From positions 32,130 through 96,129 of the IMG/VR virus record IMGVR_UViG_3300030012_001572: a stretch of DNA of 64,000 bases; one strand, 5' to 3'. Source of the DNA: a virus. The notes beneath the pieces are model-generated. The model made no database searches, was not told where the DNA came from, and saw only the letters and a list, made by a program, of their open reading frames with translations. Positions within the stretch are counted from its first letter, which is position 1. Each line of letters opens with the position of its first letter. Positions 3,627 to 63,319 of the stretch are shown one piece after another. Both the position numbers and the translations under genes were made by a program.

Positions 3627-6146
3627 GTGGTATTATTGAAACTTGGTTCTATTGAAAAGGATAGGCAACCCTCTATTGAGTTGATGCGCCTTTTTGAAAA
3701 GACAAGAGTTGCCTATTTATCAGCCGTTCAAGACCCCGATGAGTATTCGGGTCGTTGGCGTAAAGCCGTTGAAATGATTGAAGAATCTTATGATGAATTA
3801 GATGCCGCAGGTAAAGAGTTAAAGAACTTCATTAGAGAAGAAGAAATAACCGCTAATGAGGTAAAAGACCCTCAATCATCCAAAGCACAGAATCTATATG
3901 AAAAAATTAAACTTGTTAGATATACTTCAAAAATTATTGCTGACCCCTTCGCTGAAATGTTCAAAGGTAATGTTCTTGAAGAATTATTAGATAATCCTGA
4001 AACCATGCTTAAATTTGTGCATTATGCTATGAGGGAAGACAATAAAGCCCTATCAGCAGACATTTTGGCGATTAAAGACATGCAACCCGACACAATTACG
4101 GAGGGTCTTATGGGTCTTGACCTACAAGTGGACGACATACCCCTCTATATTATTGAGCATTACGGGGATGGAAAAGACTCAAAGAAGGTTGAAAAGAAAG
4201 TAAAGGCTGCTATGGATATGTTAGAGTTAATTTTCTTTTCTCAACACGAAGAAAAAGAATGGGAAGAACTTCAAGATATTGACATGCAAAAGTCAGAAGA
4301 AAAATCAATAGAAGAAAAATCAGTTAGTGATTTTATTATACCTAATAAACCAATGTATCGAATATTTGAAATAAAAGATATTAATGAATTAAAAGGATTT
4401 AGTGGGAACTGGTATATCCAAGAAAAATATGATGGCATGCGTATTCAAATACATAAGTTAGATAATAAAATAAAGATTTATTCTTACAATAAAAAAGATA
4501 TAACCGAAAAGTGTGATGAAATAGTTAAAGAACTAAAGAAGAAAGAATATGGAGATTGTATCTTTGATGCTGAACTTATTCTATTTGATGGGGAAGAAGC
4601 ACTTCATAGAGCCGATACAATCGCTCATGTATTCAAAGGCAAATATAAAGATGCTAAATTAAAATGCCATGTCTTTGATATTATGCGACATGAAACACAG
4701 ACATTACTTGATGAAGAACTTGATAATAGAATGACAATTTTATTCAATAATTATGCTGCTAAATCTTCAGAATATCTTAATTTCCCTTCAAAGAAAGATA
4801 CAAGGCAAGCAGATAGTCTTGAAGACTTAGAAGAATATTCAAAAGAAATTATGAATATGCCTACTTCTGAAGGAGTAGTCATTAAAGACGCTACTTCAAC
4901 CTACTACTTGGGAACAAAAAAGAATCCTAAGTGGATTAAAATGAAAAAGTTTGTTGATTTAGATGTTATTGTATTAGATAAGAAAAAGACTAAGAGCAAT
5001 CTTTATTCTTATACTGTCGGTGTTGGGCCAGTAGATGATGAAGCAGGACAAGAAATAAACGGAAGAAAATATCTAAATGTAGGTAAAGCCCTAAATACAA
5101 AAATCGCAGTTGAAGTCGGAGATATTATTAGAGTAAAAGTTGATGAAGTTAAGAAGAAGGGCGATGGATTTAGTTTATTCTCCGCAAAGGTTATTGAAAT
5201 ACCAGAAGTAGAGCATCCTGATAAATTAGTTACTCTTGAATTATTATCAAAAGATACTAAAAAATCTTTGAATTATAATGTTGAAGCATTTAAAAAAGGA
5301 GTGAAAGTTACTGATTACATTCATGGGGAAACTACTGCTATAATCAAATTTGATACAGATGGTTTTGTTATTTATGGTTTTGAAGAAAATAATTTAATGT
5401 CAAAAAATGCATTAAGAGATATTGATATGTGGAAAGCCAAAGCCGAAGAAATAATGAAAACAAAACAAGGTAGACTTACTGTGGCTATTGTAAACTTTTT
5501 ACAAGAAAAAGGAGATAGAACTCCTAAAGAAGTCCATGATTATTTGAAAGCAAAACACGCTGATATATATGAAACTGTATTAGATTCTCAATTAAGAAAG
5601 TTAGGTAAGTGGGCGCAAGAAAGAGAGCATATTAAAATGATAGGTAACAAATTGCATGCTGACCCGACAATTAAATTGGCTGACGAAGATAAAATAGAAA
5701 AACAATATAAAACTCCTGATGAATATAGAAAAGGTAAATTTAAAATCTATAATAGAGAAGATAATAATATTCATTTAGCAATTAGTGTAAATGGCGAAAA
5801 TATGAATTGGACTATTGATTTAGAAGATGAAGAAGAACTGTTTGATTTATTTGGTGCGGCTGGTAAATATCCAGCAGAAGTATCAAAAAATGTAGAAAGA
5901 GGAAAAGTTATTGATTCTGGAGATATAGAACTAGGTGTTCAAAAAGACGGCTATCATGAATATTTCTTGAAAGGAAATAAGTTTGAAACTAAAATGCATA
6001 TTAGAGTTATTCCTATTGATAATAAGCCGATGTGGTTAGCATGGACTGGATATAAACAAGAACCTGCTGATACTGAGGGAGATAAAGGAAAGTGGAATAT
6101 ATATGAAGATAGGTATAATAAATTATCCATACCGACTGAAAATTAG
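3627..6146 (+). CDS. ATP-dependent DNA ligase-family protein in the head module, with extra N-terminal helical and C-terminal LigD-PE-like regions
   Basis: Motif I QEKYDGMR, III IFDAEL, IIIa HVFDIM, IV EGVVIK, V WIKMKK, followed by an OB-like segment (DLDVIVL...). Confidence 0.8.
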   Translation: MVLLKLGSIEKDRQPSIELMRLFEKTRVAYLSAVQDPDEYSGRWRKAVEMIEESYDELDAAGKELKNFIREEEITANEVKDPQSSKAQNLYEKIKLVRYTSKIIADPFAEMFKGNVLEELLDNPETMLKFVHYAMREDNKALSADILAIKDMQPDTITEGLMGLDLQVDDIPLYIIEHYGDGKDSKKVEKKVKAAMDMLELIFFSQHEEKEWEELQDIDMQKSEEKSIEEKSVSDFIIPNKPMYRIFEIKDINELKGFSGNWYIQEKYDGMRIQIHKLDNKIKIYSYNKKDITEKCDEIVKELKKKEYGDCIFDAELILFDGEEALHRADTIAHVFKGKYKDAKLKCHVFDIMRHETQTLLDEELDNRMTILFNNYAAKSSEYLNFPSKKDTRQADSLEDLEEYSKEIMNMPTSEGVVIKDATSTYYLGTKKNPKWIKMKKFVDLDVIVLDKKKTKSNLYSYTVGVGPVDDEAGQEINGRKYLNVGKALNTKIAVEVGDIIRVKVDEVKKKGDGFSLFSAKVIEIPEVEHPDKLVTLELLSKDTKKSLNYNVEAFKKGVKVTDYIHGETTAIIKFDTDGFVIYGFEENNLMSKNALRDIDMWKAKAEEIMKTKQGRLTVAIVNFLQEKGDRTPKEVHDYLKAKHADIYETVLDSQLRKLGKWAQEREHIKMIGNKLHADPTIKLADEDKIEKQYKTPDEYRKGKFKIYNREDNNIHLAISVNGENMNWTIDLEDEEELFDLFGAAGKYPAEVSKNVERGKVIDSGDIELGVQKDGYHEYFLKGNKFETKMHIRVIPIDNKPMWLAWTGYKQEPADTEGDKGKWNIYEDRYNKLSIPTEN

Positions 6147-7428: not shown

Positions 7429-8790
7429 ATGACAGGATATATTAACACAATTGCAGATTTAGAAGCACAAACATACGGATTAACAGGCCATACTGGTATT
7501 AACAACCAATTGCTTAAGCAAGCAGGTTCTATTGCAGGACTTCATACAGGCCATGATGCACCATTAGGCGTATCATCAACTAATTCAGCAGCAGCAGCAA
7601 GTTCTCTTAGTGCCTTGTATAACAAGATTTACGGGCAAAAAGTCTGGTCTATGCTAAACAGGGAATGTAATGCACTTTCAGTCATTTCAAAGAGGCCATA
7701 CACTTCAAGCGGTTGGAGAGTTCTTTCCGAGCGACCTGCTGGTGGAAGCGGTAATTTCCTTGATTTAACTGGTGTAAATGAAGGAACATCTGATGCGACT
7801 ATTGGTTCAAATACAATGCGACCCGACTTATTGGGTGGTGTTCCTGAAAATGCGGCACTTTCAACTGCTGCTGATGGTTTAGCGTCTGTTGCTCCTAAAT
7901 ACGAACTATTGTTCACAAGTCCAAAGATTATTGCTCATCAATTTGAGTTCTCGGAATTGGCTATGGAAATGGCGCAAATTGACGATGGAATTGGCGATAT
8001 TAGAGCGCAAATGAGAGAAGACATGGGTAAACACCATTCAGAAACTCAAAACGCTATGCTCGTTATGCCTCTTGAAAACTACAATCTATCGGCTACAAAC
8101 CAAATCGGAACAATTGAGAGAAACTACACCTCTTTGCTAAAGGTTGTTTCTTCTAAGGAAGAATTAGATGCTATGGCTGCTGGAACTGTTTTAACTGCTT
8201 CAAATTCTGGTGTTGCAGAAATTGAAACTATTTACGGTAAGGCTCGTAGTGCTGCATCTTTCCTTGATGCACAGGTTGATTTCGGTGGAGTAGGCTATGC
8301 TACTGGAAATGCTCGCTCTTTGACTCTAACTGTTCTAAACAACACAATTAGAGACTTGAGGGTTGCAGGTGGTTCACCAAAGGTTATTCTAACTGGATAT
8401 GATACACTTCAAACCATTTCTGACTTATTGCAAGCACAAGAGCGATTCATGGACAGAAAAGAAATTGTTCCTACTGTTAATGGTGTTCGTGGTGTTAAGG
8501 GTCAAGAAGTCGGATTTAGAGTTTCTACTTACTACGACATTCCTATGATTCCTGTTGCGGCTATGCCTTCAACTGGTGCAAATACTTCTTGTATTAGTGA
8601 TATGCTTTTCCTTGATACAGACCATTTGTGGCTATCTGTTATGAAACCAACTCAATACTTTGAAGATGGTATTTCAAACGGAAACCCATTCGGTGTCGGC
8701 CATCTTGGAAACAAGGCTCTTTACCGCACTATTGCGGAAGTCGGTTGTTCTTACTTCAAGGGTCAGGGTAAAATCACCAATTTGCTGTGA
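7429..8790 (+). CDS. Major capsid protein (HK97 fold)
   Basis: 453 aa directly after protease/scaffold; strong GGTGA RBS; codon usage typical of high expression; resembles halovirus/magrovirus MCPs. Confidence 0.85.
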   Translation: MTGYINTIADLEAQTYGLTGHTGINNQLLKQAGSIAGLHTGHDAPLGVSSTNSAAAASSLSALYNKIYGQKVWSMLNRECNALSVISKRPYTSSGWRVLSERPAGGSGNFLDLTGVNEGTSDATIGSNTMRPDLLGGVPENAALSTAADGLASVAPKYELLFTSPKIIAHQFEFSELAMEMAQIDDGIGDIRAQMREDMGKHHSETQNAMLVMPLENYNLSATNQIGTIERNYTSLLKVVSSKEELDAMAAGTVLTASNSGVAEIETIYGKARSAASFLDAQVDFGGVGYATGNARSLTLTVLNNTIRDLRVAGGSPKVILTGYDTLQTISDLLQAQERFMDRKEIVPTVNGVRGVKGQEVGFRVSTYYDIPMIPVAAMPSTGANTSCISDMLFLDTDHLWLSVMKPTQYFEDGISNGNPFGVGHLGNKALYRTIAEVGCSYFKGQGKITNLL

Positions 8791-53263: not shown

Positions 53264-54775
53264 TTATTCCTCCACTAATACTGCTACTTCCGTTGAATAG
53301 AATAACTGTGCAATTGACATAGCCGCTAAGAAACTATTTGCAGTTACTTTAACAGGGTCATAAACTCCTGCTTCATCTAAATCACCATAAGTATTACTTA
53401 ATGCATTATATCCCATGTTGGGATTATCTTTTCTCAGGGCTTTAATCTTTTTGCATAGAATATCGTCTTTAAAACCCCCATTGTTTTTAAGAACAACAAA
53501 TGGTCGCATTAGAGTATCTTTAAACCAATTAGGTATATTTTCTTGTTGTGCAATATCAAATAATGTCATACCACCACCAAGAACAATACCTGATTCTAAT
53601 GCTGCTTTAGTGGCATTCAAAGCATCATCAAGTCTCTCTTTAGTTTCCCTCATTTCCATAGAAGAAGAAGCACCAACCTTAATTGTTGCAACTCCGCCTT
53701 TTAATCTTGAAATACGAGATTTGATTCTTGCTAAATCATAACCTTTCATAGTTTTAGCAACATCTTTAAGACTTTTGATTCTATCATCTGCATTTCCTTC
53801 TGCTCCAATAAAAGTAGTGGTTTCCTTTGTAATAACCACTTTAGAACAACTACCGAAATCACTTGATGTAATTTGCTGTGCATTATCTTTACTTTCATGA
53901 TTATATACTTTACCACCGACCAAAGATTGAATATCACCTAATTCATCAATTTGAGCATCACCGAAGTTTGGAGCAAGTATAACTGCACATTCAACAGTTT
54001 TGTTAATCAAATTCATTACAAGATTATTTAATGCATTAGACTCCATACCTTTACAAAGAATCAATAGTGGTCGTCCTTGTGTTGAAGCATACTCAAGCAT
54101 AGGTAATATGTCTTTAAATGCTCTAAAAGGGATATTAGACATGAATATAAGAGGATTATCAAATTCAACTTTTCCTCCTTCTGTATTGCACATTAAGTGG
54201 CTAATATAACCTTCGGGAATCTCCATACCCTCTCTATGGATTAATTCAGTATTATAGTTATTAGATTCTTCAACGGTTACAATTCCATCTCTACCTACTA
54301 TATTTAATGCTTCTTGAATTAGTTTCCCTAATTCTTTATCATTATTTGCAGCAACAGTAGCCACATTAAGAATATCCCCATCACTAATTTCAATTGTTCT
54401 TTTCTCCAAAGAGTTTAGAACTGCTTGTTTTAGACCATTAAGTGTTTGATTCATAGTATGAGTGGATTCATTATCAAATCCCATTAATGAATGACAAATA
54501 GCCTGTGCAAGAATACAAGCAGTAGTAGTTCCATCTCCTGATTTATCTTGTGCTTGACTTGCTAAGTTTTGAACCATTTGAACTCCCATTTGAACATAAG
54601 GGTCTTCATGGGAAATATACTTTGTAATAGTTACTCCGTCATTAATAATTACTGGGGGATTATTTTGCAAAATAACTGTTTTTGCTTGTGGCCCAAGTGT
54701 AGGTTTTACTGTATTTGCTACTAAATCAATTCCTTCTAGCAGTTTATGTTTTACTTCTTTACCATTCAAAATCAA
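53264..54775 (-). CDS. groEL: Group I chaperonin GroEL
   Basis: TLGP, NDGVTI, GDGTTT, APNFGD, GGVATIKVGA, DALNAT, DPVKV. Confidence 0.95.
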   Translation of the reverse strand: MILNGKEVKHKLLEGIDLVANTVKPTLGPQAKTVILQNNPPVIINDGVTITKYISHEDPYVQMGVQMVQNLASQAQDKSGDGTTTACILAQAICHSLMGFDNESTHTMNQTLNGLKQAVLNSLEKRTIEISDGDILNVATVAANNDKELGKLIQEALNIVGRDGIVTVEESNNYNTELIHREGMEIPEGYISHLMCNTEGGKVEFDNPLIFMSNIPFRAFKDILPMLEYASTQGRPLLILCKGMESNALNNLVMNLINKTVECAVILAPNFGDAQIDELGDIQSLVGGKVYNHESKDNAQQITSSDFGSCSKVVITKETTTFIGAEGNADDRIKSLKDVAKTMKGYDLARIKSRISRLKGGVATIKVGASSSMEMRETKERLDDALNATKAALESGIVLGGGMTLFDIAQQENIPNWFKDTLMRPFVVLKNNGGFKDDILCKKIKALRKDNPNMGYNALSNTYGDLDEAGVYDPVKVTANSFLAAMSIAQLFYSTEVAVLVEE

Positions 54776-54990
54776 TCAATCACCGCCATTATGAAACTAC
54801 TGTGAAGAATAGTAAAACCATTTACTTCTTGATACTTTTGGTTTGTATCAAAAATAACTTTCTTTCCTTCTATATCAGGAAAATTAGGACAAGAAACACA
54901 AGTGCCTTCTCCATCGTTTTTAATTTGAATACCAGAACTATTTGTTGTATCTTCAATTAAAATAATTGCATATTCACCAACTGCTTTCAT
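54772..54990 (-). CDS. groES: GroES-like co-chaperonin
   Basis: MKAVGEYAII...SSGIQI...G..VS...KVIF...IMAV; coupled to groEL. Confidence 0.7.
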   Translation of the reverse strand: MKAVGEYAIILIEDTTNSSGIQIKNDGEGTCVSCPNFPDIEGKKVIFDTNQKYQEVNGFTILHSSFIMAVID

Positions 54991-55265
54991 TCTTCTTCAC
55001 CGACTTCATCATTTGTTGCTACACGAACCCAACCTTTATTCATATTTACATCTACATAAGTGTAAATATGGGTTTTATGAAACTCATCAAGGGCTTTATC
55101 CTTTTCAGTCTTTTTAGACCAAGTAATTCCCTTGTTTTCTCTTGGTTCATTTTTATCGTTAGGATGGCGCAATTGATGTGCCTTTGTTCTTTCTAACAAA
55201 GTCATTCTTGGTTGTATTTCTTGAACAAAATCTGTTTCTCCATATTTCTTTTTATTTCTTCTCAT
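54987..55265 (-). CDS. Hypothetical protein
   Basis: Coupled ORF. Confidence 0.45.
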   Translation of the reverse strand: MRRNKKKYGETDFVQEIQPRMTLLERTKAHQLRHPNDKNEPRENKGITWSKKTEKDKALDEFHKTHIYTYVDVNMNKGWVRVATNDEVGEEE

Positions 55266-55927
55266 TCTTCTTCATCTCCTTTCTTTACCCATGTTTGTGT
55301 TCTTTCTAATTCACCATTACGATAAATGTCTAATTCATTTGGTCTTGAATTTGTCCAAAAACCATAATGACCTGCTCCATTGTCAGTAAGTGGCTTACTA
55401 CCAAGAACATATGCACTTTCCATTTGTGTTTCCCAAATAGAAACTGTTCTAATATCCGTTCCGCTAAAATAAGCACTACCGAATGGATGAGTATGAATCC
55501 AACATCTAATCGGCAAAGACATACCAATAGGCGGTCTTAATCCAAATTCAACATATCCTGCTGAACCAGTAGAAACAAAACATTTATTCTTTCCATCAAT
55601 AACAACTTGAACTTCTAAATTAGGAAGTATTTCTGTTGAAGCCGCCCAAATAGCGGTATGGAAATCTTCATTGTGTTGTGCAATATCCAATACTTCTTCA
55701 AAAGGAACACCGCAATTTTCAGCATTATTTTCAGAAATTATTTTATAATGGGCTAGAATAGATTGTTCTGCCTCTTTTCTTTTAATTTCTAATTCTTCCG
55801 CCCATCTTTGGATTTCTTCATCAGAAGGTTCATAATCATTACAACAAGGATTTTTTCCTCCATAATAAATTAAATTACCACATCTTACGCATTCATCAGC
55901 ACTTGCATTTTTACCCATTTTATTCAC
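55262..55927 (-). CDS. JAB/MPN+ (JAMM) metalloprotease
   Basis: LEVQ ... WIHTHPFGSAYFSGTD fits E...HxH-x7-S-x2-D; N-terminal Cys cluster. Confidence 0.85.
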   Translation of the reverse strand: MNKMGKNASADECVRCGNLIYYGGKNPCCNDYEPSDEEIQRWAEELEIKRKEAEQSILAHYKIISENNAENCGVPFEEVLDIAQHNEDFHTAIWAASTEILPNLEVQVVIDGKNKCFVSTGSAGYVEFGLRPPIGMSLPIRCWIHTHPFGSAYFSGTDIRTVSIWETQMESAYVLGSKPLTDNGAGHYGFWTNSRPNELDIYRNGELERTQTWVKKGDEEE

Positions 55928-57044
55928 CCCTCATTCTCTTGAGTTTGTTCTCCAACTTAGCCACTTTCTTTTGTTGTTTTCGCAGTTTCCTTCGCTTCCA
56001 GTAGCCCATATTTCTGATTGCGTCCTCTTTTCTCTTACGCTCGTTAATGGCGTTAGCGGCCTCCATAAGCAGGTCAATATGAGAGGGTTCTGTGCTATCA
56101 ATAATCAATTCTAAACGCTTTGCGAGTAGATAATAAGGCATTTCAAAGTATTCTCTTGCTTCATCAATTGACATGGTATGCCAGTTAATGAGAAGATAAA
56201 GGTCTTGTTCTCTTGTAAATTCAATTGGCATAATTTTGTTCAGCAAAGGAATATCAGGATTTTCTGTTATCTCAATAATCGTTTCCTCGCCTTGTGGATA
56301 AATCAAAGTGTGTTCTTTTGGTTCTGTTACTTCTTGTTTAGAATTTAGAACCTTAACATTCTTTTTACGAGGCTTTACTTCAACAGGAGTTTCAGCAGCC
56401 TTTAATGCAAGGATTTCATTAATCTTATCACATGCTTCTCCTTTTGTGTAATTACCCTTCATACCTTTAGCAAGAGTATTTACTTCTTTTTGAGTAGCAT
56501 CAGGTGAAAGAGTTAATGAAGCCAAATAACGCAATTGTTTGCGTGTAGCATCTTCTTCTCTCCAATCCTCGGATTCATTTTCCTCAATTGTTTGTTGGAT
56601 TATTTTTTCCTCAACTTTATCCTTTCTTGTCTTCAAAGGATTAAAAGTAGTAGGTTCAGGATTTAGCATTCTTTCAGCCAATGCTTGAATTTTTCCTGAT
56701 GGTTTTCTCTTTGCTAAACAATTCTTCAATTGAACATCACTAAGTTTGTAATCAAACTCTTCTTCAAATGCTTGCTTTATTCTGTCAATAGTCATACTAT
56801 TCCAAAGACAAGAGAAAACGAAATCAACTTTCTTTTGATTCCAATAAATCGGCTTACGAGCCGTTTTTCTTGTTCTTGGGTTTCCAGTAAGAGACTTGTA
56901 TTTTTGAGCGATTGTTCCCACAGTTCGCTTAACACCAAATTTTGCTGACATTAATTCAGCAATCTTACTGTATTCTACTTTATCCTCTCGTTTTACCAAA
57001 AGGTATGCTTCTTGTTCTTTTGTCCATTTTGCCATTATTTTCAT
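55920..57044 (-). CDS. Multi-domain Myb/HTH-like DNA-binding protein
   Basis: WTKEQEAYL, YWNQKK and FTREQDLYL repeats; ATRKQLRYL motif. Confidence 0.55.
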   Translation of the reverse strand: MKIMAKWTKEQEAYLLVKREDKVEYSKIAELMSAKFGVKRTVGTIAQKYKSLTGNPRTRKTARKPIYWNQKKVDFVFSCLWNSMTIDRIKQAFEEEFDYKLSDVQLKNCLAKRKPSGKIQALAERMLNPEPTTFNPLKTRKDKVEEKIIQQTIEENESEDWREEDATRKQLRYLASLTLSPDATQKEVNTLAKGMKGNYTKGEACDKINEILALKAAETPVEVKPRKKNVKVLNSKQEVTEPKEHTLIYPQGEETIIEITENPDIPLLNKIMPIEFTREQDLYLLINWHTMSIDEAREYFEMPYYLLAKRLELIIDSTEPSHIDLLMEAANAINERKRKEDAIRNMGYWKRRKLRKQQKKVAKLENKLKRMRGE

Positions 57045-57048
57045 CTCC

Positions 57049-57606
57049 TTATGCGTTTATTACCATATATTCTTTTACTTGTTCATTATTAAAATATCTT
57101 TGAATCCATTGTGCGCCAATTCCTGCTATTGCTATTTGCATGAATTGAACACCATTATTTGTTCCATCCCATGAATCTCCTTGACAACTAAATGAGCCTT
57201 CTTCACCTGCCAAAAGCATATCATACATTTTAGGGTCTGCGTTATGACTCACAAGTGCCGCATTTCTACCTTGCGCTCGTAAGTCAAGCCATTTAAGACT
57301 TGTGTTGTATAAGGTTCGCCTTACTGACAAGTTATCAACACAACAGATTACCAAATCATAGCCTTCCATTTGTTTTTCAGTTAAAATTGGATATTTAGAA
57401 CCAACCATAACCGATTTATATTTATTTGCTATTGCTTGAACCTTTAGTTCTCCAACATCATTAATATCAAAGTTTTGATATGTAATGTTTTTCTTTTCAA
57501 CAGAATCGGGGTCAGCCACCGTAATGTTGTATAGTTCTACTTTATCTAAGAACTGAATCAAAAATGACCCAATTCCGCCTGTTCCTATAATTAATACTTT
57601 TCTCAT
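57049..57606 (-). CDS. E1-like ThiF-family activating enzyme
   Basis: IIGTGGIGS, DPDSVEKKNITYQ, VGELKV, CCVDNLSVR, WLD, SFSC (putative catalytic Cys). Confidence 0.9.
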   Translation of the reverse strand: MRKVLIIGTGGIGSFLIQFLDKVELYNITVADPDSVEKKNITYQNFDINDVGELKVQAIANKYKSVMVGSKYPILTEKQMEGYDLVICCVDNLSVRRTLYNTSLKWLDLRAQGRNAALVSHNADPKMYDMLLAGEEGSFSCQGDSWDGTNNGVQFMQIAIAGIGAQWIQRYFNNEQVKEYMVINA

Positions 57607-57608
57607 AT

Positions 57609-57869
57609 TTATTTCTCCTTTTTCTTATTTCTATTCTTTCTTTTTCTTTGTGTTTGGTTAGTTCTAAGCATTCCTGCTTTTGTTTTTTCTAACATGATTT
57701 TACGATTTGCCTGTTGTATAGGGTCATCTGATTCTTTCGGGATAATTCTAGGCTTTCTAACATCACCTGCTTTTCTCCTTGCAACACAATCAGGACACAT
57801 ACAAGTATCTGTTCCAATTATTTGTGTTCCTTTCTTTTCCATTTCCTTAATAAATTCATCAAAATTCAT
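57609..57869 (-). CDS. Small basic Cys-containing protein
   Basis: CMCPDC; K/R-rich tail. Confidence 0.45.
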   Translation of the reverse strand: MNFDEFIKEMEKKGTQIIGTDTCMCPDCVARRKAGDVRKPRIIPKESDDPIQQANRKIMLEKTKAGMLRTNQTQRKRKNRNKKKEK

Positions 57870-57878
57870 ATTATCACC

Positions 57879-58211
57879 TTAAAACGATTTACCATGCATA
57901 AACTCACGACTTTTGTTATATTCTAACTTAGCGAGAATCGCACCCGCTATATCTAAATCTTTACCAAATGCGTAATCCATTATACGAATTACCGCATCTG
58001 CTAATTCTTCTTCAAGATTAGTAAATTCCATAATCTTATTTGATGAGGGATTACCCTCTCTTAATGCTTCTAATGCTTCACTAATCTCGGCATGAATTAA
58101 AGCCATTCTTTCTCCATCATTTACTTCTTCTTTCCAGAATCCATGATTAACTGCATTCTTATATACTTGTTTTGCTATTTTATTCCATTCTTTTTCAAAC
58201 ATTTTTACCAC
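57879..58211 (-). CDS. MazG-like NTP pyrophosphatase
   Basis: LIHAEISEALEA, EEELADAVIRIMD, KLEYN..R. Confidence 0.85.
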   Translation of the reverse strand: MVKMFEKEWNKIAKQVYKNAVNHGFWKEEVNDGERMALIHAEISEALEALREGNPSSNKIMEFTNLEEELADAVIRIMDYAFGKDLDIAGAILAKLEYNKSREFMHGKSF

Positions 58212-59056
58212 AACCTTTTTCCTTTGATTTCATGTGCTACTCTATAACCAATAAGTTCTAACAACTTCTTGGTTTCTAAATAAATCGTCTTTTCACTAAC
58301 TCCTGTTTGTTTAGATATGGTTTGTCTTTGTATTGTAGGATGAACCATTTTATTTACGGTTATCCAACATATTGCTTCATAATAACTAGGAGACTTTGTA
58401 TAATCTCCTTTCTGTTGAATTACTGCTTCAAAATACTCAAGAGTTTCTTCTGCTTGTCTCCTAAATACTAAATCTTCAGGAGCAATTTTTGCTACTGTTT
58501 TAATCAATCTGTATCTAGGATTGTAGGGGAGTTTCTTTGTTCCTGCAAATTGCTTAATCTTTCTAATTAGTTTCTTAGCACTTTTCATTGAATCAGGAAA
58601 TTCTTCACTAACTTCTTTAATTGAATGTTGTGTTCCGTTTTCTAATAAAGCATAATAAACAACTGCCGTTGCTCTTGCTTCATAAGTAGTTCTTCCAAAC
58701 AAACCTTTATTCAAGAAAAGAAGATATAATTCTTCTACTCTTGCTTTTAATTGCATTTGTGGTGCTACTTGACTTAATACCATATTACAATGATAAAATC
58801 CGTCAATTACTTTCTTTGGGAAGACACTATGTTTTCCCCAACGATTAAACTTATATGCTCCCTTTCCAGTTATTACTGAACCTAACCGACCATTATCCGA
58901 TGAAGCAATATTAACACCGTTATCTACAATACGAACTGTTTCTTCAAACATTTCTGTTATGATAACCAACCCGCAAGATTTACAACAAACCTCGCCTAAT
59001 TGTTCATCAAATTCTGTTTCTGTATTTCCGCATTCTTCACATATGTTATTCTGCAT
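58205..59056 (-). CDS. tfb: Transcription initiation factor B (TFIIB/TFB) homolog
   Basis: Zn ribbon CEECG...GEVCCKSCGLVI, then cyclin-repeat GRT..A.A...VYYA; start taken at MQNN. Confidence 0.8.
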   Translation of the reverse strand: MQNNICEECGNTETEFDEQLGEVCCKSCGLVIITEMFEETVRIVDNGVNIASSDNGRLGSVITGKGAYKFNRWGKHSVFPKKVIDGFYHCNMVLSQVAPQMQLKARVEELYLLFLNKGLFGRTTYEARATAVVYYALLENGTQHSIKEVSEEFPDSMKSAKKLIRKIKQFAGTKKLPYNPRYRLIKTVAKIAPEDLVFRRQAEETLEYFEAVIQQKGDYTKSPSYYEAICWITVNKMVHPTIQRQTISKQTGVSEKTIYLETKKLLELIGYRVAHEIKGKRLW

Positions 59057-60206
59057 GCAAATCAATCCTATATTCATTGGTATTACCGATAAGGTATCTT
59101 TTAATTGTATTAACGATTGTAATTGTAAATCTATCATTTAATAGTGCTAATGCTCTAGCAGCAAATTGGTCGCCTAATGAAGAACCTTTTGCCATATTAT
59201 CTATACAAATTGGCCCTTGCCATTTAGGTTCAGAATGAACTGTTTCATATATAGTTTCTTCATTTTCATCAAGACCTACTGCTTTCTTTTCTTTGACTGG
59301 TTGCCAAACATAAGTCGAAACCATTTGTATTTCAGACTTATATTTATTATTGGTTAATTTCCAATCATAATCTTTGCCTCTAACATAGAGATTCATTAAA
59401 ACATCACCTTCCCACTCAGCCGAAAGCCTGTCAGGATATTGTTCCAATAGTTCATTAACTAATTCAATTGCCCTTCTTTCAACCAAATCATCAGTTCTGT
59501 TCTGTCTTAGAAATGCTTTCATTACTTCCACTTCAGAATCAGTAGGTGTTTTGCCGACTGTTTTTTCATATAATTCGTTAGGGGAAGTATCAACCCAACT
59601 TCCACGATTTTTATTGTTCTTATAATAATTACAGAATACATCTAACTGTTTAACAGTCATTGTTCCCCAAACACCATCACTAACCTCAATTGCTATTTCA
59701 TTATCACCAATTTGCTGACAATTCAATCTAACTTCTATTGGTTCATCACCATCAGTTAATAGTTCAAACCAATGATAAGGCGCACGATTTTCAATACAAT
59801 ACTTGACATTTTCTGGTAATGATAATGTAGAATATAATGCGGTTAAAAGTTTTGAAGGTTCATTTTCAAAGCAAGACTTAAAGGTTAATCTTGCTAAAGC
59901 CGAAGCAATATTTGATAAATTAAAAGATTTACCATTTACTTCATATCTAATACCTTCTCTTGATAAGAGAACAGGACAACCATTAATCATAACTAAATGA
60001 TTAAATTGCTTTTTAAATCCTCCCCATACCTTATTCTTAGGAGAAAGAATCTTTCTCCAATATTTCTCTAAACCCGCTTGAAGTGGGTCAAGTGCTGACC
60101 TATCATAACTAACATCAGTATCATAAAAAGTAAATGTTTCACAGGTAATTTCTGTAAAATAAAACTCATTAGAGTCGTCAGGTTTTGCTATTCTTATTCT
60201 TGCCAT
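59046..60206 (-). CDS. Hypothetical protein with GPICID motif (E2-like candidate)
   Basis: C-terminal WQGPICIDNM...GDQFAARALALLND. Confidence 0.4.
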   Translation of the reverse strand: MARIRIAKPDDSNEFYFTEITCETFTFYDTDVSYDRSALDPLQAGLEKYWRKILSPKNKVWGGFKKQFNHLVMINGCPVLLSREGIRYEVNGKSFNLSNIASALARLTFKSCFENEPSKLLTALYSTLSLPENVKYCIENRAPYHWFELLTDGDEPIEVRLNCQQIGDNEIAIEVSDGVWGTMTVKQLDVFCNYYKNNKNRGSWVDTSPNELYEKTVGKTPTDSEVEVMKAFLRQNRTDDLVERRAIELVNELLEQYPDRLSAEWEGDVLMNLYVRGKDYDWKLTNNKYKSEIQMVSTYVWQPVKEKKAVGLDENEETIYETVHSEPKWQGPICIDNMAKGSSLGDQFAARALALLNDRFTITIVNTIKRYLIGNTNEYRIDLHAE

Positions 60207-60210
60207 ATTA

Positions 60211-60372
60211 TCACATCATATACATATTAGATTTATCTTTATCGCAAGATTCGTGAATCTCACGCTTTATCTCATCAGGGATGAGAAGTTGTTTTCCGCA
60301 CACCCTACAACGGGTAGCGATATTAGAGTTTTTTCTTTTATTTAAGACATAATTCGGGTCTTTTTCTTTCAT
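60211..60372 (-). CDS. Small Zn-finger protein (53 aa)
   Basis: RCRVCGKQL...HESC; below the ORF-track cutoff. Confidence 0.5.
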   Translation of the reverse strand: MKEKDPNYVLNKRKNSNIATRCRVCGKQLLIPDEIKREIHESCDKDKSNMYMM

Positions 60373-60712
60373 TGGCATTCCTCAATCTATTAATATTTTT
60401 ATTCATAATTTGACAGACTTTACATTCATGTGTCTTTGGACAATGTTTTGCATGATATTGCAATAATTTTTTTTGTTTATTAACTTCCTTTCTAAAATAT
60501 CTATGGAAACCCATTTCAATTGCTTCAGGAATATCCCATAATGTTTCTAAATATGTTTGTGTTAATCTAAATATTTTATCTTTGTCATACATTAATGACT
60601 CGCAGACATTTATTGCTAATCTTACTTTATTTATAGACTCATCGGTGAGCCTACTACACATTTTTATTATTACTGATTCACACTCTCCATAATTTTTGAA
60701 GAGTTTCTTCAT
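60338..60712 (-). CDS. Hypothetical protein with C-terminal HCxxxxxCxxC
   Basis: HCPKTHECKVC. Confidence 0.45.
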   Translation of the reverse strand: MKKLFKNYGECESVIIKMCSRLTDESINKVRLAINVCESLMYDKDKIFRLTQTYLETLWDIPEAIEMGFHRYFRKEVNKQKKLLQYHAKHCPKTHECKVCQIMNKNINRLRNANERKRPELCLK

Positions 60713-60724
60713 CTTTTCACTTCC

Positions 60725-62599
60725 CTATATTTCGCATTGTCCTCCCGCACAGGCTATTTCGCCCGATAGGTCGGTATTGTCTTGAGTTTCAACTACTTTA
60801 GTTAAATCAACTTCTGATAGCGATTTACTCAATTCATGATACTTTTCAGCATCACAGTCCTCAAATGGTGCTTGAGTGTATGTTCCTCCATCATAAGGTA
60901 AAACAGACAAACCATTGTAATAATGTCTATTTAACCACATCCATTCAGCGACTCTTTCCCATTCATTATCTTTAATTGAAATGGTGGCAGAAACATTATG
61001 TGTATTTAATCCATCACCATGTCCTGCACGAACCCAACGAATACTAAAGTTCTTTACACGCTCTAATAAATCAAATACTGATTCATGTCGTATAATAGCA
61101 TCTTTAGGTGCTTTTTGAGGAACAGAAATAACTGCTTGTTCTGTCGGATTAAAGAACTCATCTTCTACTAATTCAGGGTGTTCCCTTGAAAGGTAGCCAT
61201 AAATCGCTTCATTCTTTCCTACTCTTAATCTACGAATATAATAATCATTATGCCAAGCATGAATACCACTACTTGTTCCTAAAACAAGAGAAGTAGTTCC
61301 AGCAGGTTTTACGCATGTTGTTCTTTGAGCAGGATTAATACCAATTAACTTAGAAACCTTTTCATTTTCTTTCTTTACTTCATATGCGGCCATTTCTAAA
61401 TCTAAATGCTCAACAATATTTGAAGCAATACCTGTCATGGAAACTCCTAACAAAGCATCTTTCTCAGTCGCTTTGCGCCAAACTTCACGAAGATAATGAA
61501 AATCAGTATAACCCGCTTGTAATGTTCCTAAAAACGCTGCGGCTGAAACTCTTGCTTCTAAATCGGCTTGGTCTTTTACATCAGAAGCATTAACTTCTGT
61601 TAAATTACAAAATTGATATGGTCGTAGCGCAATCTCACAACAAGGATTAGTTCCCCAGTCTTTATCGTTATTAAAATAAATTCCGGGTTCTCCGCTTCCA
61701 GACGCTTTAATTCTATTCCACAAATCCATAAAGAAATCTTTTGTTACTCTATGTCTAAGCAATACTGCTGAATTGTTTGCTCTACCCCTTTGCGGATTTG
61801 TTTCCCACCAATTACCTGATTTACAAGCAATCATTTCATGGTCATCTGCTGAAAATAAACTAATCATAGCGGCTCTCCTAATTCCACCACTAAGAACTGC
61901 ATCAGCAATATGGCACATAATATCATGTGATTGAATAGGACTTAATTTAGTTCCATTAGGAATGTTTTGTAGTAAGTTCTCAATTAAAACTAAACACTTT
62001 CTTAATGGCTGACTTCCAGGTGCTTTTCCTCCAGAAGTTTTTAATAAACTTCCTTTAGGTCTAATATCTGAATAATCAAATACTGGACTTGATGTTCTAA
62101 TACCAGTATAACACTCCATAAGAATCTTTACTGCATCAGCCCATCCTTCTATTGAATCATTAACTAAATATCTTCTTTGACGATTAAGATTAGGTTTATG
62201 AATCTCTCTCATCAAATCAACATGGTGTCTTTGAACAGAATAACCAACGCCCGTTCCACCGAGTAATAAAAACATAGCCTCACTAAAGGCTATATGTGAA
62301 TCTATTGGCATATATGCACAATTGTAAACTCTATTTGGTGAAATTTCAATAGGTTTTCCACCAAACTGCATTGAACGCATAGAGGGCAATACTTTCTTTG
62401 GAACAACAAAATGCTCATAAACATCTCTAATATCTTGTTCTAATTGAGGATATGTTTTAATATGCATATCCATGTTTCTTTGACATATTTCACTCCATGT
62501 TTCTCTTCTTTCTAATTCGGGCTTAAACTTTGCATATTTCATATGCACCGTAATATCGGATAATATCTTTTTATCTGGGGCTTGTTCCATAATTAACAC
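60725..62599 (-). CDS. nrdJ: Class II (B12-dependent) ribonucleotide reductase
   Basis: LPSMR, YNC, GTGVG, TNPCCEI, CNLTE, CVKPAGT, C-terminal CAGGQCEI. Confidence 0.92.
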   Translation of the reverse strand: MLIMEQAPDKKILSDITVHMKYAKFKPELERRETWSEICQRNMDMHIKTYPQLEQDIRDVYEHFVVPKKVLPSMRSMQFGGKPIEISPNRVYNCAYMPIDSHIAFSEAMFLLLGGTGVGYSVQRHHVDLMREIHKPNLNRQRRYLVNDSIEGWADAVKILMECYTGIRTSSPVFDYSDIRPKGSLLKTSGGKAPGSQPLRKCLVLIENLLQNIPNGTKLSPIQSHDIMCHIADAVLSGGIRRAAMISLFSADDHEMIACKSGNWWETNPQRGRANNSAVLLRHRVTKDFFMDLWNRIKASGSGEPGIYFNNDKDWGTNPCCEIALRPYQFCNLTEVNASDVKDQADLEARVSAAAFLGTLQAGYTDFHYLREVWRKATEKDALLGVSMTGIASNIVEHLDLEMAAYEVKKENEKVSKLIGINPAQRTTCVKPAGTTSLVLGTSSGIHAWHNDYYIRRLRVGKNEAIYGYLSREHPELVEDEFFNPTEQAVISVPQKAPKDAIIRHESVFDLLERVKNFSIRWVRAGHGDGLNTHNVSATISIKDNEWERVAEWMWLNRHYYNGLSVLPYDGGTYTQAPFEDCDAEKYHELSKSLSEVDLTKVVETQDNTDLSGEIACAGGQCEI

Positions 62600-62982
62600 C
62601 TATGTTTAGTTCTTTTGGGAAGTTTGTCTAAAGTAGTAAAAGAGCAAATAAACTTTCTATTACCATCAGTAATCACCCACTCTTTTTCCATTAGAAACTT
62701 CCAGTTTATGAAGTCCTTTACGGCTTCATTTCCACAAGAAGATAGTAATTCATCTACCGATGAATAGACCTCCCCTGCGTAGTCTATGCGACTCTCACCG
62801 AGCGCATAAATATAACCCCGCTTGCCTGTTGCGAGGATAAAATTGTCGGGGTAAAAATCGGGCTTTACCACCGCAAGGTCATTTAGAATTACAGCATTAT
62901 TGCTATATTTCCAACCCTTCAAATCTAACATGATTTGTAGGGCATTTTCGTGAATAAAATTAAGTAAATCGGGTTGCATCAC
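62593..62982 (-). CDS. Hypothetical protein
   Basis: ORF; start uncertain. Confidence 0.45.
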   Translation of the reverse strand: MMQPDLLNFIHENALQIMLDLKGWKYSNNAVILNDLAVVKPDFYPDNFILATGKRGYIYALGESRIDYAGEVYSSVDELLSSCGNEAVKDFINWKFLMEKEWVITDGNRKFICSFTTLDKLPKRTKHRC

Positions 62983-62984
62983 CC

Positions 62985-63028
62985 AAAAAAGGGGAAGCCA
63001 TTAGTCGGTAAAAACTAATGACTCCCCC
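62985..63028 (-). terminator. Stem-loop plus T6 terminator downstream of the Ubl gene
   Basis: On the - strand: ggggagtcattagt-ttttaccg-actaatggcttcccc-tttttt. Confidence 0.7.
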
Positions 63029-63066
63029 TAATCGGGCTTGAAAGAACTTTAAGAATCAATTAATCC

Positions 63067-63273
63067 TCAAAGATTTCCTCCAACGATTGCAGGGGTTAAA
63101 TCTACCGATTGAACCGTTTCCCAGTTAATGTTAGCAATTTCTTCTCTTGCAACCATTTCCCCATCAATAAAAGCCCAATGGGTAGGGTGGTTGTCAATTT
63201 GCTCAATAATGCCTGAAGCGTCAAGCATTAAGTCTGTGTGTCCTGTTTCATTTAAAATTCGTAGTTTAATCAT
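63067..63273 (-). CDS. Ubiquitin-like (beta-grasp, ThiS/MoaD/SAMP-like) protein with GG-NL C-terminus
   Basis: 68 aa; WAFIDGEMV...VDLTPAIVGG followed by NL; GGAG RBS. Confidence 0.7.
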   Translation of the reverse strand: MIKLRILNETGHTDLMLDASGIIEQIDNHPTHWAFIDGEMVAREEIANINWETVQSVDLTPAIVGGNL

Positions 63274-63311
63274 ATTATCAATCTCCGTTCATTCTTGCTA
63301 GTTCTCTCAAG

Positions 63312-63319
63312 TATATAAA
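63312..63319 (-). promoter_or_regulatory. Archaeal TATA box upstream of the Ubl gene
   Basis: TTTATATA on the - strand ~40 nt before the ATG. Confidence 0.6.

Follow-up and report, generated by a model that had tools for sequence, protein, structure and literature searches.

A probable ubiquitin-like conjugation pathway encoded by a magrovirus and related to a chromosomal pathway of Poseidoniales

We analyzed a 64-kb stretch of viral DNA (the window), which comprises the last 64 kb of the 96,129-bp linear virus record IMGVR_UViG_3300030012_001572 (completeness of 100% according to CheckV), an ocean virus of Marine Group II archaea, and characterized a set of its genes that appears to specify a ubiquitin-like protein (Ubl) conjugation system. 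Our work makes it probable that the virus encodes a four-part pathway, consisting of a Ubl precursor, an E1-like adenylating enzyme, an E2-like protein and a JAB/JAMM metalloprotease, and that this pathway is related to a chromosomal one of its Poseidoniales host. The evidence consists of the computed fold of the Ubl, the conservation of its GG and tail, the catalytic motifs of the enzymes, the linkage of the four families in viruses, hosts and natural fusions, and a modelled interface between the JAB protease and the Ubl. Most likely, the virus uses the set to tag proteins itself. The four genes are all located on the minus strand, spread over 8 kb, and only the E1 carries an annotation. A preliminary description of the window, made without database searches, had proposed the Ubl, the E1, the JAB protease and a possible E2, and we found the open reading frames (ORFs) of the first three on the minus strand where it had placed them:

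63067 to 63273, minus strand: Ubl precursor of 68 amino acids (aa), a predicted 66-aa beta-grasp ending in IVGG and followed by the 2-residue tail NL; the ORF ends VDLTPAIVGGNL.
59046 to 60206, minus strand: p386, 386 aa, with a predicted E2/UBC-like C-terminal domain (residues 238 to 386, nucleotides 59046 to 59495) and Cys334 in the motif W-x-G-P-I-C-I-D-N.
57049 to 57606, minus strand: minimal E1-like adenylating enzyme of the ThiF family, 185 aa (Pfam ThiF, 1.3e-16, 60.9 bits with a cut-off of 28.1).
55262 to 55927, minus strand: JAB/JAMM metalloprotease, 221 aa, with a variable N-terminal part of about 90 aa and a catalytic core with the motif HTHPFGSAYFSGTD.

The Ubl belongs to no family in Pfam, PHROGs, PADLOC or NCBIfam, its profile does not match any sequence in the PDB, and no match was found in GenBank phage records. 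Structure prediction had been fixed beforehand as a check on the proposal that the small protein is a beta-grasp. The AlphaFold2 (AF2) model, built from an alignment of 17 viral homologues, has a predicted local distance difference test (pLDDT) score of 89.5, the order b-b-a-b-b-a-b of strands and helices, and a disordered tail. Its best 50 Foldseek matches are all ubiquitin, ISG15 or NEDD8, with modest E-values of about 5e-3 and probabilities of 0.84 to 0.99. The top matches by VIA (Z of 4.2 to 5.4) are a ubiquitin variant, Fubi, the Ubl of a bacterial E1-E2-Ubl complex, MoaD, ISG15, ThiS, TtuB and BubA. Matches from both methods are thus all beta-grasp proteins, and at the level of the model we regard the fold class as settled. 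Identity to ubiquitin is about 12% in structural alignments, and a relationship by sequence is not detectable.

At the C terminus of the Ubl, the sequence ...VDL(T)PAIVGG is invariant, and the GG, whose conservation the preliminary description had made a point of, is present in 66 of 66 viral homologues. After the GG there is no residue in 14 of these proteins, and the remainder have 23 different tails of one or two residues. This combination, a fixed GG with a hypervariable tail or none after it, is characteristic of residues that are cleaved off. We also noted that viral Ubls contain no or one lysine (P of about 0.04, for one protein), which is suggestive of avoidance of self-conjugation; host units have lysines, and we made no use of this observation.

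The Ubl gene is flanked by two elements to which we assign putative functions:

63312 to 63319, minus strand: TTTATATA box, putative archaeal TATA element, about 39 nt upstream of the Ubl ATG.
62985 to 63028, minus strand: terminator-like element after the Ubl stop codon, a 14-bp stem (GGGGGAGTCATTAG / CTAATGGCTTCCCC) with two G-U pairs, followed by T6.

A GGAG is present about 12 nt before the ATG. With the TTTATATA box upstream and the hairpin and T6 downstream, the Ubl gene looks, as far as sequence can tell, like a transcription unit of its own.

The protease that would remove the tail carries the exact JAMM motif (HxH-x7-S-x2-D) and a conserved Glu105 about 40 residues before it, as expected from the earlier claim of an intact JAMM enzyme. 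In 24 sequences compared from viruses and hosts, E105, H145, H147, S155 and D158 do not vary. The protein scores 19.1 bits with Pfam Prok-JAB, which is below the cut-off of 25 and covers only the motif region, and PADLOC matched neither the JAB protease nor p386. Co-folding of JAB and Ubl, as suggested in the preliminary description, gave a score of 0.83 compared to 0.00 for the best of three controls; the runs agreed in at least 92% of the contacts and the partner had a pLDDT of at least 90. In the modelled complex the tail is in the active site, with Ubl residues 60 to 68 placed against E105, H145, H147, S155 and D158. Of 80 solved complexes, 58 attain the mark used for this comparison, as do 2 out of 110 pairs that were mismatched; these counts provide only a rough calibration here because our own alignments and a zinc ion were used.

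The E1 is predicted from its sequence to be a stripped-down, zinc-less, single-domain adenylating enzyme. Residues invariant in virus and hosts are GxGGIG, D32, D34, N40, Q44, K55, D91, R96, WxDLR, SCQ and GAQW. As the preliminary description had stated, both zinc-binding CxxC pairs are missing while a late SC cysteine is kept; only SFSC remains, aligned with CFAC of UBA5, and its Cys141 is the invariant cysteine in SCQ. The E1-E2 models of PADLOC cover only the first 60 to 110 residues of the protein (best E-value of 1.2e-10). At least 422 viral contigs encode the E1 of the window.

Distant relatives of the E1 family are also present in crAss-like Bacteroides phages, in which the gene is annotated as "thiamine biosynthesis protein" (40 records, 29 to 34% identity). 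In one of these phages (PQ006092.1) the E1-family gene at 4800 to 5654 has a nearby ORF with the JAMM-type motif HSHNNMPTFFSGTD, and replication modules of crAss-like phages may therefore contain an E1 and JAB pair.

A profile search with the Ubl over 1.84 billion representative proteins identified 124 relatives. There are 117 complete domain ends among them, 106 with GG and 7 with AG. In many of the relatives, two or three Ubl units follow one another head to tail, each ending in ...PGLVGG plus a short linker. Two proteins (P0012 and P0042) consist of one or two Ubl units ending in GG and fused to an E1, which is ThiF-positive and matches the E1 of the window over its full length (33 to 35% identity over 180 aa, E-values of 1e-24 and 1e-27), and in four others (P0010, P0050, P0026 and P0043) the Ubl-GG is fused to an unannotated domain, here called domain X. 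The tandems of two or three Ubls and the fusions with E1 or domain X represent precursor forms that require cleavage. A scan of viral contigs with P0012, P0002, P0010, P0043 and a broad Ubl alignment gave no match.

Does the virus also have an E2? The preliminary description had listed the product of 59046 to 60206 as a possible E2, and this assignment has gained support from the modelled fold, an invariant cysteine, the fusion of a related domain to Ubl, and the position of a homologue in a host operon. p386 belongs to no family in Pfam, PHROGs, PADLOC or NCBIfam, and all 281 sequence relatives of its E2-like domain are unnamed and without a Pfam domain. A protein atlas search with this domain gave no usable match, and six Pfam E2 families searched against the whole virus gave none. 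The AF2 model has a pLDDT of 84.8. With residues 238 to 386, about 45 of the best 50 VIA matches are UBC, RWD or UEV folds at middling Z values of 3.9 to 6.1, including the E2-like domain of FANCL (3k1l_A; Z of 6.1, root mean square deviation [rmsd] of 3.1, 85 residues aligned), E2S (1zdn_A; Z of 5.6, rmsd of 3.8, 108 residues aligned), UBE2F, Ube2K, Ubc9, UFC1 and RWD and UEV domains. The weight of this model-based evidence lies in the uniformity of the matches rather than in any single Z value. Foldseek gave weak matches to UbcH5-type E2s (probabilities of 0.4 to 0.66, E-values of 0.1 to 0.3), and the N-terminal two thirds of p386 have no interpretable fold match.

The GPICIDN motif around Cys334 is kept in 73 of 75 homologues of p386. 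In the model the cysteine is located between a strand (residues 328 to 333) and a helix (residues 344 to 356), and from this topology and the resemblance to G-x-I-C-[IL]-D we suggest that it occupies the position of the catalytic cysteine of E2s. The domain shares three colinear motifs with domain X and with the host ORF c21. An hhalign comparison of the p386 C-terminal domain with the Ubl-fused domain X plus c21 gave a probability of 82% and an E-value of 1e-5 over 121 columns, with the cysteines aligned. Since domain X is homologous to the C-terminal domain of p386, the Ubl family is naturally fused to both the E1 subfamily and the E2-like family.

The Ubl-E1 fusions map to contigs of Candidatus Poseidoniales metagenome-assembled genomes (MAGs) with a GC content of 46 to 54%. 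Five contigs from Poseidoniales or metagenomes carry a Ubl-Ubl-E1 gene, and in all four that reach far enough the next, overlapping gene encodes a JAB protein with an intact JAMM motif that is related to the viral one (profile E-values of 1e-18 to 1e-20). Ubl, E1 and JAB are the only ORFs of the window with matches on these contigs. In the sampled Poseidoniales, 118 of 201 genomes (at least 59%) matched, most of them with a stand-alone E1 and a separate poly-Ubl gene. Six of six further host E1 loci have the order E1, JAB and a small helical protein, with overlapping genes, and c21 is located directly downstream on the same strand in 10 host genomes. Six host poly-Ubl loci encode two or three units, and the final tail is short and variable. 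Judged by sequence, then, each of the four families has a homologue in the host. The third gene of the host operon (7739 to 7978 in locus L071, 11634 to 11879 in L054, and equivalents) encodes a conserved acidic helical protein of 79 to 99 aa with no known family and no viral counterpart; we dropped the idea that it corresponds to a viral 92-aa ORF downstream of JAB, as neither has a counterpart in the loci of the other. In some Poseidoniales MAGs, the divergent E1 and JAB are present in two or three copies on separate contigs (C33, C8 and C70 of G001; C6 and C7 of G065), which could be paralogous modules or mobile or viral DNA binned with the host.

Among the viruses, we examined 88 related loci and counted those that reach far enough to contain the gene in question. 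The JAB gene is present in 86 of 86, the E2-like gene in 69 of 69 and the Ubl gene in 58 of 58, far more often than chance would give. The preliminary expectation that E1 and JAB travel with the Ubl was borne out in these viral loci, in the host operon and in the natural fusions; the last two provide evidence of linkage that is independent of viral synteny.

We propose the following pathway; all of its chemical steps, the passage through a thioester, the use of lysines as acceptors and the choice of targets are inferred. The Ubl would be produced from its own transcription unit as a precursor with two residues beyond the GG. The JAMM protease would trim this tail and probably also reverse conjugates. 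The ThiF-type E1 would then adenylate the exposed Gly66, possibly followed by formation of a thioester on Cys141. Finally, Cys334 in the E2-like domain of p386 would receive the Ubl and pass it on to lysines in proteins of the virus or the host. As a tentative hypothesis, to which we give slightly less than even credence, virus and host each run a version of a hitherto undescribed Ubl cascade, made up of poly-Ubl or tailed Ubl precursors, a minimal E1 lacking zinc, a new E2-like family and a JAMM protease, and the viral copy, either orthogonal to the host pathway or hijacking it, tags host or viral proteins during infection.

Several points weigh against a functional conjugation pathway. Cys141, the sole invariant cysteine of the E1, aligns with the zinc-knuckle position of UBA5 and not with a known catalytic cysteine. 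The viral E1 starts at beta-1 and lacks the N-terminal helix, which we take to be the carrier of the arginine finger in MoeB and ThiF, and in place of NLxRQ the virus has N-I-T-Y-Q and the hosts have N-L-G-H-Q, with Tyr or His at the Arg position that we equate with that of MoeB. Lacking the arginine-finger helix and with this Arg replaced, the E1 is not assured to be active. The HPN motif is not conserved in p386 homologues, and neither UQ_con nor Prok-E2_A to E matches; the E2 call rests on middling Z values (4 to 6.1), weak Foldseek E-values (0.1 to 0.3) and one hhalign match at 82%. JAMM-ubiquitin complexes have already been solved, and the co-fold result may mirror these known structures. 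Synteny extends over the whole block in magroviruses, and co-occurrence in these viruses by itself therefore says little about a functional link. The fold alone cannot tell a protein tag from a sulfur carrier, as MoaD, ThiS, TtuB and CysO match it at the same Z as ubiquitin by VIA. In addition, JAB trimming of two residues after the GG is also known for the sulfur carrier system QbsE/QbsD, and hence tail processing alone cannot separate tagging from sulfur transfer.

Could the viral Ubl be a sulfur carrier? In the QbsE/QbsD/QbsC and CysO/Mec+ systems, a JAMM enzyme removes residues after the GG of a small beta-grasp protein before adenylation by the E1. The JAB-trimmed and E1-adenylated viral Ubl would, in an analogous manner, be converted to a thiocarboxylate at its C terminus and donate sulfur via host enzymes, for instance to a cofactor or in the thiolation of tRNA, without any conjugation. 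The ubiquitin-level Z values of the sulfur carriers speak for this alternative, as do the best family matches of the viral E1, which are ThiF and MoeB. We nevertheless consider it quite unlikely. The operons of the Qbs and CysO systems hold rhodanese or sulfur-transfer proteins and biosynthetic enzymes, none of which is present in the virus or at the host loci, and to our knowledge these systems have no E2-like partner, whereas fusion and operon link the Ubl to an E2-like protein with an invariant cysteine. The preliminary remark that thiamine, molybdopterin and thiolation genes are missing from the window holds for the whole 96,129-bp record, in which we found no such partners (ATP_bind_3, MoaE, rhodanese), and a PP-loop thiolase was not found anywhere in the complete virus either. 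No sulfur-cofactor genes are present near the host operon or the poly-Ubl gene, and rhodanese, MoaE and PP-loop thiolase genes do not adjoin them. Each of five hosts keeps a separate canonical ThiF-family enzyme elsewhere on the chromosome (E-values of 1e-75 to 1e-81). Sulfur operons with JAB, E1 and ThiS or MoaD have been described, but in the literature consulted tandem poly-Ubl precursors go with E1/E2/JAB operons and not with sulfur operons (PMC1779556).

Why would a virus bring a Ubl pathway into a host that has one? The viral JAB protease might strip host conjugates, or the viral Ubl and E1 might compete with or hijack the host E2-like enzyme, either of which would serve to disarm a host response and not to sustain a separate viral cascade. 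Consistent with this, the host has homologues of all four families, the related bacterial Bil, Bub and CBASS (cyclic oligonucleotide-based antiphage signaling system) systems are antiviral, and the identity of 23 to 44% between viral and host proteins permits cross-reaction as well as orthogonality. However, both the E1 operon and the poly-Ubl loci of the host occur in conserved chromosomal synteny amid housekeeping genes (GDP-mannose dehydratase, glycosyltransferases, a phosphate transporter, a wyosine radical-SAM enzyme, an RFC-like ATPase and a succinate dehydrogenase flavoprotein), and the prevalence of the system among the sampled genomes is unlike that of a patchy defence island. Moreover, the virus retains four parts with strict catalytic residues and a Ubl with a median identity of 76% among viral homologues, more than a decoy or a lone deconjugase needs. 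Interference with the host pathway is thus unlikely in our view, although computation cannot separate it from tagging by the virus itself. The earlier suggestion that the viral set counters a Ubl-based defence of the host is speculation, although a homologous system is indeed present in the host, where its chromosomal context is housekeeping-like.

The virus itself fits group B magroviruses by its gene content (PMC5434244, in which ubiquitin, ThiF and JAB are not mentioned): it encodes a GroEL-type chaperonin (Cpn60_TCP1, 3e-45), a class II ribonucleotide reductase and a TFB-like protein, and the GC content of the window is about 33%. The genes of the presumed tagging system are part of a replication and expression block, outside the structural module. 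This location speaks against the possibility that the Ubl acts in assembly without conjugation, as a beta-grasp factor that JAB processes, as has been proposed for the lambda-like tail assembly proteins TAPI and TAPK, with an E1-like protein of unrelated role. Phages do offer a viral precedent, in which the Ubl TAPI is paired with the JAB protein TAPK (PMC1779556), but the Ubl is naturally fused to E1 and the same module occurs in chromosomes of cells, away from any structural genes of viruses. We regard a role in assembly as highly improbable.

How does the presumed viral tagging pathway compare with known systems? The preliminary description had called it sampylation-like. Protein tagging is still the best reading, but this label is imprecise, as the viral set, with its E2-like component, resembles the bacterial Bil type more than it does the SAMP/UbaA system, which is without an E2. 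BilABCD also has a Ubl precursor, a JAB that exposes the C-terminal Gly, an E1 and an E2 (PMC10557695), the last corresponding to our E2-like candidate, and one of the best matches to the structure of the viral Ubl is the Ubl of Bil (8tyz_B; Z of 5.2, rmsd of 3.5, 61 residues aligned). The Bil E1, however, has inactive and active adenylation domains and an inserted Cys domain (PMC10557695), and that of the virus consists of one domain of 185 aa; the Bil genes form a compact defence operon in bacteria and the viral ones are distributed over 8 kb in the genome of an archaeal virus; and ThiF is the only sequence-family match between the two sets, the viral E2-like domain belonging to no Pfam E2 family. 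The viral set resembles Bub (PMC11601596) and the operons of tandem Ubl, E1, E2 and JAB described by Iyer et al. in 2006 (PMC1779556) in the tandem or fused Ubl precursors cleaved by a peptidase of the pathway, in a diverged E1 without a canonical catalytic Cys, and in mobile or conflict-related contexts. Bub differs in its oxyester intermediates, its peptidase-E1 fusion and its serine protease (PMC11601596); the viral set has a separate JAMM protease and an invariant Cys in both the E1 and the E2-like domain.

With SAMP, UbaA and HvJAMM1 (PMC2948915, PMC4443979) the viral system shares an archaeal GG-ending beta-grasp modifier, a ThiF-type E1 and a JAMM protease. Sampylation differs in having no known E2, and its E1, UbaA, is of the canonical MoeB type and functions in sulfur transfer as well. 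With the UbaA model NF047750, which has a cut-off of 450 bits, the viral E1 reaches 35.9 bits, and hosts have their separate canonical ThiF. The Ubl repeats of hosts and metagenomes, each ending in GG plus an extra C-terminal residue, and the Ubl-GG fusions are reminiscent of eukaryotic polyubiquitin and ubiquitin-fusion genes, but here processing would be by a JAMM protease and not by UCH or USP enzymes, and the low structural-alignment identity sets the Ubl apart from ubiquitin. The fused E2-E1 (Cap2) beside a CD-NTase that characterizes CBASS Cap2/Cap3 was not found in the virus.

Bacterial E1/E2/JAB/Ubl operons, tandem Ubls and a Ubl-ThiF fusion have been described (PMC1779556), and Bil (PMC10557695) and Bub (PMC11601596) have been characterized biochemically. 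The prevalence of a MoeB/ThiF gene in archaeal viral genomes was remarked upon in passing (PMC8276007). In the literature searched, only this ThiF gene is mentioned, as an auxiliary metabolic gene, and neither magroviruses nor Poseidoniales are ever paired with a Ubl conjugation system. Prokaryotic pathways of Ubl, E1, E2 and JAB were only recently shown to conjugate proteins, so far as host defences against phages, and the present set is on the side of the virus. In the surface ocean, magroviruses rank with the most abundant viruses of archaea. If the tentative hypothesis of two Ubl cascades, one viral and one of the host, is correct, the viral one would be the first full Ubl conjugation pathway from a virus of prokaryotes. 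An active system, with its 66-aa tag and 185-aa E1, would offer a compact case for minimal E1/E2 chemistry, add a new E2-like family that no database annotates, and give concrete access to the way in which a virus reprograms its host when neither has been cultured.

Other genes in the block include the following:

54772 to 54990, minus strand: 72-aa ORF directly upstream of GroEL, conserved in 43 of the first 50 loci, with no Cpn10 or other Pfam match.
55920 to 57044, minus strand: 374-aa protein.
57879 to 58211, minus strand: MazG-like nucleotide pyrophosphatase (PHROG, 4e-27).

The first of these had been labelled GroES and the second Myb-like; the former label could not be verified, there being no Cpn10 match, and the latter has no support from Pfam. 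The TFB, GroEL and the 374-aa protein had been named as candidate targets of tagging, which we did not retain, as it was based only on gene proximity inside a syntenic block. The MazG-like gene is the most conserved of the block, with a median identity of 90%, and is located elsewhere in the genome in a few related loci. No tRNA genes were found within the 64-kb window. Genes for tRNA-Leu and tRNA-Arg have been reported for group B magroviruses (PMC5434244) and may be present in the first 32 kb of the record. Genes of the viral block (54987 to 55927 and neighbours) end in ...EEE and overlap the next gene by 4 nt, and those of the host operon (loci L051 to L054) end in ...EVSA, also with a 4-nt overlap. 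These endings probably reflect translational coupling, with the last codons of the upstream gene containing a GGAGG-like ribosome-binding site.

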